Positions 55,245 through 56,912 of a stretch of DNA of 59,548 nt are shown in pieces (position 1 is the stretch's first letter; the number at the start of each line of letters is the position of its first letter). The notes beneath the pieces are model-generated. The model searched no databases and had not been told where the DNA came from. It saw nothing but the letters and a program-made list of their open reading frames with translations. The stretch comes from Deltaproteobacteria bacterium 13_1_40CM_4_68_19. Lineage in GTDB: Bacteria > Myxococcota > Myxococcia > Myxococcales > 40CM-4-68-19. The stretch covers positions 1 through 59,548 of the forward strand of contig MNFJ01000164.1 of assembly GCA_001918155.1 (NCBI GenBank), given 5' to 3'. Both the position numbers and the translations under genes were made by a program.

Positions 55245-55308
55245 CAGTCGCTGCCGCCGAAGGCGGCTCTGCGACTGTGTCTTTGGACTGTACCGGTAAG
55301 AGATGCGC
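55245..55308 (+). repeat. Nested-hairpin intergenic repeat, copy C (reference copy)
   Basis: CAGTCGC-t-GCCGCC-GAA-GGCGGC-tct-GCGACTG has the tail TGTCTTTGGACTGTACCGGTAAGAGATGCGC. It aligns almost base for base with copy A through the tail. Confidence 0.65.
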
Positions 55309-55364
55309 GCAAGTTGGTCAAACCCCGTTACCTATGCGATCGTCTCCGGCCGGGGAGGGGCCCT

Positions 55365-56864
55365 TTGCCGGCGAAGGACTCGAGCGGCGCAACGTGCCCG
55401 CGATGCGCCCGGGCACTCCCGCCTGGCTCCGCGAAGGTGTGCGTGTACTGCGGCGCTGCCCTCGCGCCGCCACCGGCGCCAGCAAGCAGTCCGGGATTCG
55501 GGCGCCGTCCAGCGCGGGACTCCCGGGTCGGCGAGACGGTGGCAGGGCGGTTCAAGGTCGAGGAGCTGATCGGACAGGGCGGGATGGGCAAGGTCTACCG
55601 CGCCCGACACCTGGCCCTGGACCGCCTCGTCTGCCTGAAGATGCTCAAGCCGACGCTGCTCGAGGATTCGTCCGTGGTGGGGCGGTTCGAGCGCGAGGCG
55701 CTGGCAGCGAGCCGCCTCAACCACCCGAACAGCATCCAGGTGCTCGACTTCGGGCGCAACGATACCGACGGCTCGCTCTACATCGTGATGGAGTACGTGC
55801 AGGGAAAGGATTTGCGCCTGGTGCTTCGCGACGAGTGGCCCGTCCCGGAAGAGCGCCTCTGCAACATCATGGCGCAGGTGCTGGCGGCGCTGGGCGAGGC
55901 CCACGCGCACAACGTCATCCACCGCGACCTCAAGCCCGAGAACGTCATGGTGGAGCAGCGGCGCGATCACCCTGACTGCGTCAAGGTGCTCGATTTCGGG
56001 ATCGCGAAGATGCTCGACAGCGAACTGCCCGCGCTCACTCGCTCCGACGCGGTCTGTGGGACCCCGCAATACATGGCGCCGGAGCAAGCCACCGGAGCGC
56101 CGCTCGATGGGCGCTGCGACCTGTACGCCGTCGGGATCATGCTCTACCAGATGGTGACGGGACAGCTGCCCTTCGACGGCCCGAACTCGATGGACGTGCT
56201 CACCCGTCAGGTCAACGAGGCTCCGGTTCCGCCTCGCCGCAAGCAGCCGAACGCGCCGATCTCGGCGGCCATGGAGGCGCTGATCCTGCGCGTGCTCTCG
56301 AAGGATCCGGCGCTGCGGCCGCAGTCGGCGGAGGAGTTCCGCCAGCTCTTGCTCGCGATCCCCCGCCGCAACCCGGCGCGGGGCAGCGAGGAGCAGAGCG
56401 CGACCCCGGCTCGAGGCACGCTGCCGCGCACCTCCGCACATTCGGGCGCCCCGGCACCCGCTGGTCCGGTGGCGAGGGCCGCGTCGCACTGGTTCGGGAA
56501 ATTCGCGGCAGTCTGCGCCATCGTCGCGCTCGCGACCGCGGTGGCAATCTTGCGCCCGCGGAACGGCCCGAGGCCGCCAGCGATGGCGGCCTCGACCGCA
56601 GGCGCTCCGGCGAAGGCGGTGGCCGCGGCCCGCGCGAACGAACTGGTCCGCCGCGCGGCACAGTCCGCCGATCAAGACCTGGCGCGCGATCTTCTTGCGC
56701 AGGCGATCGCGATCGACTCCGACAACGCCGAGGCGCACTTCCGGCTCGGCGGCTTGCTCCTCGGGTCAGACCCAGCGGGGGCCAGGATCGAGTACCAGGC
56801 TGCAAGGCGCCTCGACCCGGCCAGATATGGCGATGAGGTCGGCGCGATCCTGAAGGAACCCTAG
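55365..56864 (+). CDS. Ser/Thr protein kinase with an N-terminal zinc ribbon, a TM segment and C-terminal TPR-like repeats
   Basis: The zinc ribbon is CPRC...CVYCG. The Hanks motifs are GQGGMGKVY, VCLKML, HRDLKPENV, DFGIAK and GTPQYMAPE. The TM is FAAVCAIVALATAVAIL. The start is inferred as TTG 55365 (GGGGAGGGG upstream); TTG 55314 is an alternative. Confidence 0.85.
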   Translation: MPAKDSSGATCPRCARALPPGSAKVCVYCGAALAPPPAPASSPGFGRRPARDSRVGETVAGRFKVEELIGQGGMGKVYRARHLALDRLVCLKMLKPTLLEDSSVVGRFEREALAASRLNHPNSIQVLDFGRNDTDGSLYIVMEYVQGKDLRLVLRDEWPVPEERLCNIMAQVLAALGEAHAHNVIHRDLKPENVMVEQRRDHPDCVKVLDFGIAKMLDSELPALTRSDAVCGTPQYMAPEQATGAPLDGRCDLYAVGIMLYQMVTGQLPFDGPNSMDVLTRQVNEAPVPPRRKQPNAPISAAMEALILRVLSKDPALRPQSAEEFRQLLLAIPRRNPARGSEEQSATPARGTLPRTSAHSGAPAPAGPVARAASHWFGKFAAVCAIVALATAVAILRPRNGPRPPAMAASTAGAPAKAVAAARANELVRRAAQSADQDLARDLLAQAIAIDSDNAEAHFRLGGLLLGSDPAGARIEYQAARRLDPARYGDEVGAILKEP

Positions 56865-56912
56865 CCGCTGCCGCACGAAGTGCGGCTTTGCGGCTATGTT
56901 TTTGGACTGCAC
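56862..56912 (+). repeat. Nested-hairpin intergenic repeat, copy D
   Basis: TAGCCGC-t-GCCGCAC-GAA-GTGCGGC-ttt-GCGGCTA has the tail TGTTTTTGGACTGCAC. The kinase TAG stop is the first 3 nt of the outer stem. The element fills the convergent gap. Confidence 0.65.

Follow-up and report, generated by a model that had tools for sequence, protein, structure and literature searches.

A nested-hairpin repeat bracketing a kinase gene probably belongs to a lineage-specific, REP/BIME-like family of small mobile elements in uncultured soil Myxococcota

Contig MNFJ01000164.1 of Deltaproteobacteria bacterium 13_1_40CM_4_68_19 (assembly GCA_001918155.1), studied here as one stretch of 59,548 nt (“the window”), holds four copies of a nested-hairpin sequence, A (22139–22230), B (23827–23905), C (55245–55309) and D (56862–56912), the last two of which bracket a Ser/Thr kinase gene. 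We consider it probable (roughly 0.7) that A–D are copies of a lineage-specific repeat resembling repetitive extragenic palindromic sequences (REPs) and bacterial interspersed mosaic elements (BIMEs), i.e., a small non-autonomous mobile element of uncultured soil Myxococcota; the family is previously undescribed and of a well-known, REP/BIME-like kind. Copies are dispersed over many loci, A, B and C are derived insertions, elements sit at gene ends with a biased orientation, their stems covary, and occupied sites turn over between strains. The initial annotation of the window had offered four explanations for the hairpins—a REP/BIME-like element, a mobile miniature element, an RNA regulatory or stability motif, and a protein-binding palindrome—of which the first two, taken together, fit best.

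One architecture is common to the four copies: a 7-bp outer stem (YAGNCGC/GCGNCTR), a 1-nt bulge, a GC-rich inner stem of 5–8 bp, a GAA or GGA loop and a 3-nt bulge. Most copies continue into the conserved tail TGYYTTTRGRCTGYAC, plus a third block (“block 3,” aGGTCATGAGAYGCGCTCT) that is seen after the tail in A, B, C and many copies elsewhere; the full unit of ~70 nt comprises a nested GC-rich palindrome of 33–37 nt, a U-rich conserved linker and block 3. Copies C and D read exactly as the initial annotation had described them, with stems that differ in sequence yet remain complementary. The hairpin of C (55245–55277, CAGTCGC T GCCGCC GAA GGCGGC TCT GCGACTG; 80.5 bits with our covariance model) is followed by the tail TGTCTTTGGACTGTAC and a truncated block 3, CGGTAAGAGATGCGC (55278–55309), the 3′ part of a ~65-nt insertion in the intergenic region between the divergent FHA gene and kinase gene; that of D (56862–56896, TAGCCGC T GCCGCAC GAA GTGCGGC TTT GCGGCTA; 68 bits) is followed by the tail TGTTTTTGGACTGCAC (56897–56912), i.e., a U-rich tract plus GGACTGCAC, and the stop of the convergent FHA gene lies 8 nt beyond, at 56921. 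The extension of this description to A and B was right about the architecture and needs amending in the details. Copy A (hairpin 22163–22195, CAGTCGC G ACCGCC GGA GGCGGC TTA GCGACTG, 78 bits; tail TGCCTTTAGGCTGTAC and block 3 AGATCACGAGATGCGCTCT, 22196–22230) departs by its GGA loop, an A·C mismatch and an extra partial unit just 5′. This 24-nt unit, A0 (22139–22162), consists of the left arm CTGTCGCG and an inner hairpin (CCCGCC GGA GGCGG) without a right arm, falls in the window's repeat family D2, and forms with A a head-to-tail array of two units (22139–22195). Copy B (hairpin 23827–23859, TAGTCGC G GCGGCC GAA GGCCGC TTA GCGACTA; 39 bits) has a variant linker, CGCTTGAGCCCGAACCCTGCCAGCAC, in place of the T-rich tail, followed by block 3 GGGTCATGAGATGTGTTC (23860–23905); the same linker stands 3′ of hairpins in L217:12997 and L203 (labels of this form denote compared contigs from related genomes, soil metagenomes and metagenome-assembled genomes, MAGs).

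The plus strand, which also holds most of the window's genes, carries all four copies, as first reported, both in a mechanical nested-hairpin scan of the window (A, B, C, D and nothing else convincing) and with the covariance model run without filters, where A–D are again the only convincing matches (68–80 bits for A, C and D and 39 for B). A weak match to the model (11.8 bits) at 41363–41425 on the minus strand has the form of a nested hairpin (TGGCCC...GCCGC-TCCAAG-GCGGC-AAA-GGGCTA) and lies shortly upstream of a plus-strand ATG; it may be a degenerate relative of the family or an unrelated hairpin.

Single-strand RNA folding recovers the nested hairpin in every window copy, with energies of −26.9 kcal/mol for C (z = −3.4 against shuffles), −27.3 for D (z = −2.0) and −24.8 for B (z = −2.3). 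The 16-nt tail, at up to three mismatches, occurs three times in the window against 0.32 expected, a count reached in 0 of 100 shuffles. In the model alignment of 31 distinct copies, 95.2% of stem cells are paired, both sides have changed in 5 of 13 pairs, and the covariation score is 0.233 compared with 0.097 in shuffles, none of 500 of which reaches the observed value (slid controls stay at or below 0.06). Among 24 distinct hairpins parsed by hand, Watson–Crick pairs fill 307 of 322 stem cells; outer position 1 is C–G in 9 copies and T–A in 14, outer position 4 is T–A in 13, C–G in 9 and A–T in one, and inner stems of 5–8 bp fall into at least six types. The loop is GAA in 20 of these 24, the 1-nt 5′ bulge and the U-rich 3-nt 3′ bulge are conserved, and GRCTGYAC is invariant. 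The hairpin structure is maintained in the family. In C, though not in D, the tail's GGACTG could instead pair with the left arm; this alternative fold was rejected.

The initial annotation had argued from such compensatory changes for selection on a folded RNA or single-stranded DNA structure. The covariation itself stands; what does not follow from it is selection on an RNA at each locus, since in a dispersed repeat it is the master copies that must stay hairpins. The covarying changes moreover fall into few subfamilies and so represent a modest number of independent events.

By similarity, the kinase and its neighbors place the window in an uncultured soil Myxococcales (“Deltaproteobacteria”) lineage, and over these genes the nearest genome in the species-representative collection is 87% identical at the amino-acid level. 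The family proposed from four copies does have further members. A 23-nt pattern (right arm plus tail) occurs at 45 loci in soil-metagenome contigs, with a hairpin upstream in nearly all, and on the 0.34 Mb of partly redundant soil contigs recovered with it the covariance model makes 57 matches, at about 25–28 distinct sites. Five matches fall on one 20.6-kb MAG contig and only one on 1.19 Mb of related Myxococcales MAGs. The 35-nt hairpin of copy D recurs identically at no fewer than six unrelated sites in metagenome contigs, and hairpin plus tail (51 nt) is identical at at least six unrelated loci. Outside this material, the 23-nt pattern gave a single match, attributable to chance, in 596 Gb of representative genomes and none in viral contigs; a BLAST search of plasmids found none, the 16-nt tail pattern returned chance matches only from the genome contig collection (L001–L118, of which L072 was checked), and the tail motif is absent, except for one remnant, from 1.27 Mb of relatives. 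The family appears to be abundant in one narrow soil Myxococcota lineage, and a mere extrapolation from partial contigs would put it at hundreds of copies per genome; REPs typically number more than 100.

Copies A, B and C are missing from the same sites in every related genome and are therefore insertions. At site A the gene for an ABC-type ATPase and the next gene overlap by GTGA in 10 of 10 related species, where the window has ~100 nt of element; the downstream protein starts in the window at the ATG of block 3 (22222) and has the N-terminus MRSDWP versus VTALAT in relatives, the sequences being alignable from EQARALI onward. Most relatives have a 1–22-nt spacer between the convergent stops at site B (L245 has ~70 nt with an unrelated hairpin), and the window has 82 nt, all of it element, whose terminal CTA (23903–23905) provides the convergent minus-strand gene with its stop codon. 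Site C reads ...TTTT-NNNGG-TTGGTCAAAG in most of 13 relatives, some being more diverged and none having a hairpin; in the window, 65 nt are inserted between TTTT and GCAAG-TTGGTCAAA. At site D, relatives carry TAG plus 1–9 nt and then the convergent stop (e.g., TAGCCGCCC-TCA), so the left-arm TAG(CCG) is ancestral there and amounts to microhomology at the junction. In L119, the closest relative, TAGGCTGTAC is preserved at site D, and the hairpin and 11 codons present in all other orthologues are gone; we read this as a deletion derivative.

Across the family, placement follows gene ends. With gene context taken from codon-position GC analysis (and, for L255–L259, from the collection's gene calls), at least nine sites are convergent, eight are tandem with the element co-oriented with the upstream gene, none is tandem and anti-oriented, and two are divergent (C and L226). 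The tandem imbalance of eight to zero (two-sided p = 0.008) answers affirmatively the question of an orientation bias relative to genes, raised in the initial annotation. Strict replication-strand bias was not found, as L203, L212 and L223 hold both orientations within 4 kb. In ~16 of 25 sites the upstream gene stops between −9 and +3 relative to the element start, and among the 16 TAG-type copies the left-arm TAG supplies the stop codon in 12, versus one third expected from frame (the cases bracketing this count give 10/14, p = 0.004, and 13/17, p = 0.0003). Copy D behaves in this way, the kinase stop codon at 56862–56864 being, as initially noted, the first three bases of its stem, and in L207 an element lies inside the end of ridA such that the hairpin encodes the last eight RidA residues. 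Neighboring genes draw stop and start codons from the element itself: the TAG of its left end, the CTA of its right end and the ATG of block 3.

Occupied sites also differ between close relatives. Downstream of the DUF2203 gene, L207:12693–12765 and L236:1084–1156 hold elements of opposite orientation with different inner stems next to a flanking protein that is 98% identical; a hairpin with compensatory stems occupies this site in a more distant species, and four further species lack a hairpin there. Two MAGs have different variants (in stems and linker) at the end of the PilZ gene (L223:11426–11464 vs. L255:19073–19105). These same-site inversions and variant differences suggest repeated replacement or conversion at hot spots. 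The 24-nt unit, TCAGTCGCG-GCCGCC-GAA-GGCGGC, of which A0 + A in the window is a two-unit array, is present at one site twice (L230:8040–8158) or four times (L234:1650–1793). Deletions of 209 nt (L220 vs. L228), of 405 nt (L206:14249–14653 vs. L214, with GCGGC microhomology to the inner stem) and of 1267 nt (9410–10676, L207 vs. L236) end exactly at an element, and a fourth, of 747 nt (11360–12106, also L207 vs. L236), lies at or near one; element-associated deletions truncate an accC-like gene, an MCP-like gene and phnDCE. In L207 the phosphonate transporter operon phnD-phnC-phnE lies between two direct element copies (9419–12695), between ridA and the DUF2203 gene, and in four related species the latter two genes are directly convergent, 4–12 nt apart, without phnDCE.

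The closest known counterparts belong to the GTAG superfamily of REPs and BIMEs, with which we compared the family (E. coli GTAG-3, Pseudomonas GTAG-1 and Stenotrophomonas SMAG; PMC3733652, PMC2817692). According to PMC3733652, REPs occupy the spaces between convergent and between unidirectional open reading frames, less than 20 bp away from a 3′ end; their termini “often provide the ... stop codon (TAG),” changes in the stems are complementary, and nested GC-rich loops occur in the E. coli-type GTAG-3 family. The soil family shares with them a GC-rich imperfect palindrome of 20–40 nt with bulges between the outer stem and the GC-rich inner stem; interspersed, extragenic, lineage-specific copies with subfamilies defined by complementary stem changes; convergent or unidirectional placement within ~20 bp of 3′ ends, with a terminal TAG as stop and occasional C-terminal coding; mosaic clusters with conserved linkers; and, on contigs that carry the family, a gene for a Y1 transposase like the REP-associated tyrosine transposases (RAYTs).

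This RAYT-like gene (L223:2285–2941 = L255:10001–10660) encodes a Y1/HUH protein of 218 amino acids, P0001, with the motifs GNHLHLL and ALAYVLGN. Four soil MAGs (GCA_001919205.1, GCA_001920585.1, GCA_001918665.1 and GCA_001917705.1) have it, in single copy and surrounded by housekeeping genes. It was detected with a small hidden Markov model of IS200, IS608 and E. coli RAYT and then with Pfam and NCBIfam, after an earlier tblastn search with IS200, IS608 and E. coli RAYT queries had returned no match. P0001 scores 25.5 bits on Pfam Y1_Tnp (cut-off 23) and 38.6 bits, compared with 17.2 for IS200, on NCBIfam REP_Tyr_transpos (“REP-associated tyrosine transposase”); its family includes at least 4866 proteins, many of them named RayT by the Joint Genome Institute. 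Five family elements occur within 20.6 kb of the RAYT-like gene, whose contigs carry 3–5 members. The search for such a gene suggested in the initial annotation thus succeeded in finding one on element-bearing contigs, although no element flanks it. A REP/RAYT link for the family is plausible rather than demonstrated.

Some side observations concern this and another contig. After the RAYT-like gene, L223:2941–3440 holds on the opposite strand what reads by eye as an IS256-type transposase remnant, and CCCCAATCATG occurs at both L223 2277 and 3336. On L259, another Myxococcales contig, a sister hairpin family (3141–3173, 17169–17205 on the minus strand and 20259–20292) has outer stems TAGGCGC/GCGCCTA and TAGCCGC/GCGGCCA, a GAA loop, TAG as the upstream gene's stop and a different tail, TGCYYTTTCTGC; its organism has a RAYT-like gene that is 79% identical. 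Our literature search on REP or RAYT in Myxococcota turned up nothing specific.

A number of observations weigh against the REP/BIME-like reading. The REP tag is an unpaired GTAG (or CGTC) at one end, degenerate tags such as GYAG being accepted, and head-to-tail REP dimers are rare (PMC3733652). In the soil family, by contrast, the conserved YAG terminus is paired with the CTR of the right arm and there is no unpaired GTAG: the base before YAG on the plus strand is mostly C, and GTAG is readable only on the minus strand, in ~9 of 24 copies (where C follows the right arm). All clusters, including the variable 24-nt tandem unit, are head-to-tail (A0 + A in the window, L203, L205, L209, L220, L223, L230 and L234), with no inverted dimers such as REPINs and BIMEs. 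On the side of the enzyme, no element lies within 1.4 kb of the RAYT-like gene on element-bearing contigs, a departure from REP/RAYT systems; P0001 falls below the NCBIfam cut-off of 80; the gene is known from soil MAG contigs and not from the window's own genome; and L261, a contig with a P0001 homologue, has no such hairpins in 20 kb. The stems hold four G·U and three A·C pairs, a lack of strand asymmetry that does not favor an RNA and on the basis of which RNA and single-stranded DNA are not separable. Three further points concern termination: B has a poor U tract, a simple promoter and terminator scan of 54.8–57.2 kb reported nothing (a scanner that does not handle bulged stems accounts for this), and termination at site A, if efficient, would have a polar effect on the gene that follows. 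A further difference from REPs is the ~35-nt conserved 3′ module that accompanies single copies. Because of these departures from textbook REPs, we class the family as REP/BIME-like without calling it a proven GTAG-REP/RAYT member.

As for mechanism, the hairpin may be kept because a structure-specific enzyme recognizes it as folded single-stranded DNA, the most plausible candidate being an HUH/Y1 (RAYT-like) transposase similar to that on the element-bearing contigs. At the 3′ end of an upstream mRNA, hairpin and U tract could act as a partial intrinsic terminator or as a barrier to 3′ exonucleases, which would explain the orientation bias; E. coli REPs between genes of ABC-transporter operons (malE-malF, hisJ-hisQ) act in this way, as terminator or mRNA stabilizer. 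The window copies suit such a role unequally: D fits terminator anatomy, A and C do so moderately, and B poorly.

Among the alternatives we first consider a stop-to-start junction cassette, a reading that we regard as unlikely. Here, insertion would be guided by structure or by microhomology to stop codons (YAG), and the element would restart the next gene: it would bring stops for both neighbors, a hairpin resembling a terminator and a 3′ module, made up of tail and block 3, that supplies an ATG, a Shine–Dalgarno-like GGAG and possibly a promoter. A by-eye search of the tail and block 3 for sigma-70, sigma-54 and extracytoplasmic-function (ECF)-type promoters gave no convincing match with correct spacing, and a promoter was dropped except as part of this scenario. 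If the junction-cassette scenario were true, operons could be split without being killed, as at site A, and the frequent swapping, inversion and deletion at gene boundaries would be driven by the element.

We also doubt that the family is a classical MITE (miniature inverted-repeat transposable element) moved by a DDE transposase (e.g., of IS630/Tc1 type) and defined by terminal inverted repeats and a target-site duplication. The likeness to small non-autonomous repeats at gene boundaries such as the Correia elements of Neisseria, RUP and Nezha, which may supply terminators, stops or expression signals, is real, and, as in Correia elements and MITEs, termini begin with TA or TAG and strains differ in presence and absence. 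Full-length copies have the right end GCGCTCTR, which repeats the left arm YAGNCGC imperfectly and in inverted form; both boundaries frequently show CTAG or TA, and some copies lie between short direct repeats (TGACTG for A, TAGTC for B and CAGTC for L216). MITEs, however, have inverted terminal repeats of 15–30 bp and a TA target duplication, whereas the family has inverted termini of 7–8 bp only, CAG-type left ends without TA, ragged right ends, flanking direct repeats that are inconsistent and one nested-hairpin core; no target-site duplication is visible at site C on comparison with 13 empty sites. Furthermore, covariation links the left arm's first base to the internal right arm, which makes that base part of the element rather than of the target.

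Likewise improbable is an RNA motif with a cis-regulatory or stability role, or a small-RNA family, selected per locus and perhaps binding a protein or controlling flanked genes such as the kinase. In its favor are conserved asymmetric features (the GAA loop, the 5′ and 3′ bulges and GRCTGYAC), an orientation that follows the upstream gene, and the bracketing of single genes by copy pairs (A/B and C/D), which exceeds chance at p ~0.01–0.02 in a post hoc test. Yet Rfam gave no match at gathering score over the whole window, with only chance-level hits around copy C (E = 2.7 and 7.8), neighboring genes are functionally unrelated (kinase, ABC transporter, ridA, phnDCE, accC-like, FtsH, PilZ, tpiA), orthologous sites in relatives lack copies, and orientation and variant differ between strains, which local regulatory selection would not allow. 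As for the bracketing, both enclosed window genes (the kinase gene and 22222–23820) are syntenic core genes in all relatives, and we therefore take it as clustering or local hopping; the pair around the kinase is best explained by two insertions, independent or locally hopped, and not by a kinase-specific regulatory device.

Two remaining explanations are very improbable. Were the copies ordinary, unrelated intrinsic terminators, alike because GC hairpins and T runs look alike, one would point to the GC-rich hairpin of about −25 kcal/mol, the U-rich tract on the sense strand (6 U in 9 nt after the D stem), the position of A, B and D directly after plus-strand stop codons and the orientation matching the upstream gene; but the 16-nt tail and 19-nt block 3, some 35 nt shared beyond the hairpin, are conserved well past any U tract, have no true match in the genome collection and so are no general terminator motif, and hairpin-plus-tail copies of 51 nt recur identically at unrelated loci. 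The initial annotation was right that C lies in a divergent intergenic region with no plus-strand gene upstream, and right that termination alone does not explain the family: relatives mostly lack a hairpin at the compared sites, C is divergent, and A interrupts the formerly coupled GTGA junction, so termination is not the family's reason for being. Integron-like attC sites marking the ends of mobile gene cassettes also fold as single strands, with outer boxes that are conserved, an inner stem that varies, extrahelical bases, a kept structure and a single orientation at gene 3′ ends, and phnDCE in L207 sits between two direct copies with nothing there in relatives, but the outer boxes YAGNCGC/GCGNCTR do not match the attC core (GTTRRRY/RYYYAAC), the 33–37-nt elements are much shorter than attC, the bracketed window genes belong to the syntenic core, and no integrase came to light in a less than thorough search.

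Turning to the neighborhood of C and D, the Ser/Thr kinase gene (55365–56864, plus strand; Pfam Pkinase, E = 5e-53) most likely starts at the TTG at 55365, which follows GGGGAGGGG; no in-frame ATG lies near its 5′ end (55335–55365), and public calls of the same gene start much further downstream (426–441 amino acids). Its neighbors on either side (54123–55184 and 56921–58399, both on the minus strand) encode paralogous proteins with zinc-ribbon and FHA domains and similar C-terminal coding sequence (repeat families D3 and D5), and this kinase/FHA signaling cluster is conserved in relatives. Between copy C and the kinase, the conserved TTGGTCAAAG (55314–55323 in the window, ~45 nt upstream of the kinase start) occupies the same place in L119–L131 and in L119 belongs to the palindrome TTTGACCAAGGTATTTGGTCAAA; copy C abuts this motif on its 5′ side, and the insertion may have disrupted a promoter or operator.

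On the REP/BIME-like reading, the hairpins around the kinase gene should not be annotated as kinase-specific regulators. The elements alter gene ends, providing stop codons, C-terminal tails and, at a split operon junction, a new start codon. Rearrangement and deletion between strains take place at sites that they mark, and this bears on the assembly of MAGs and on population genomics. REP elements are hardly described in Myxococcota, and sister families exist in relatives; the head-to-tail arrays, paired YAG and long 3′ module of the present family could help to explain how such elements are recognized and moved.

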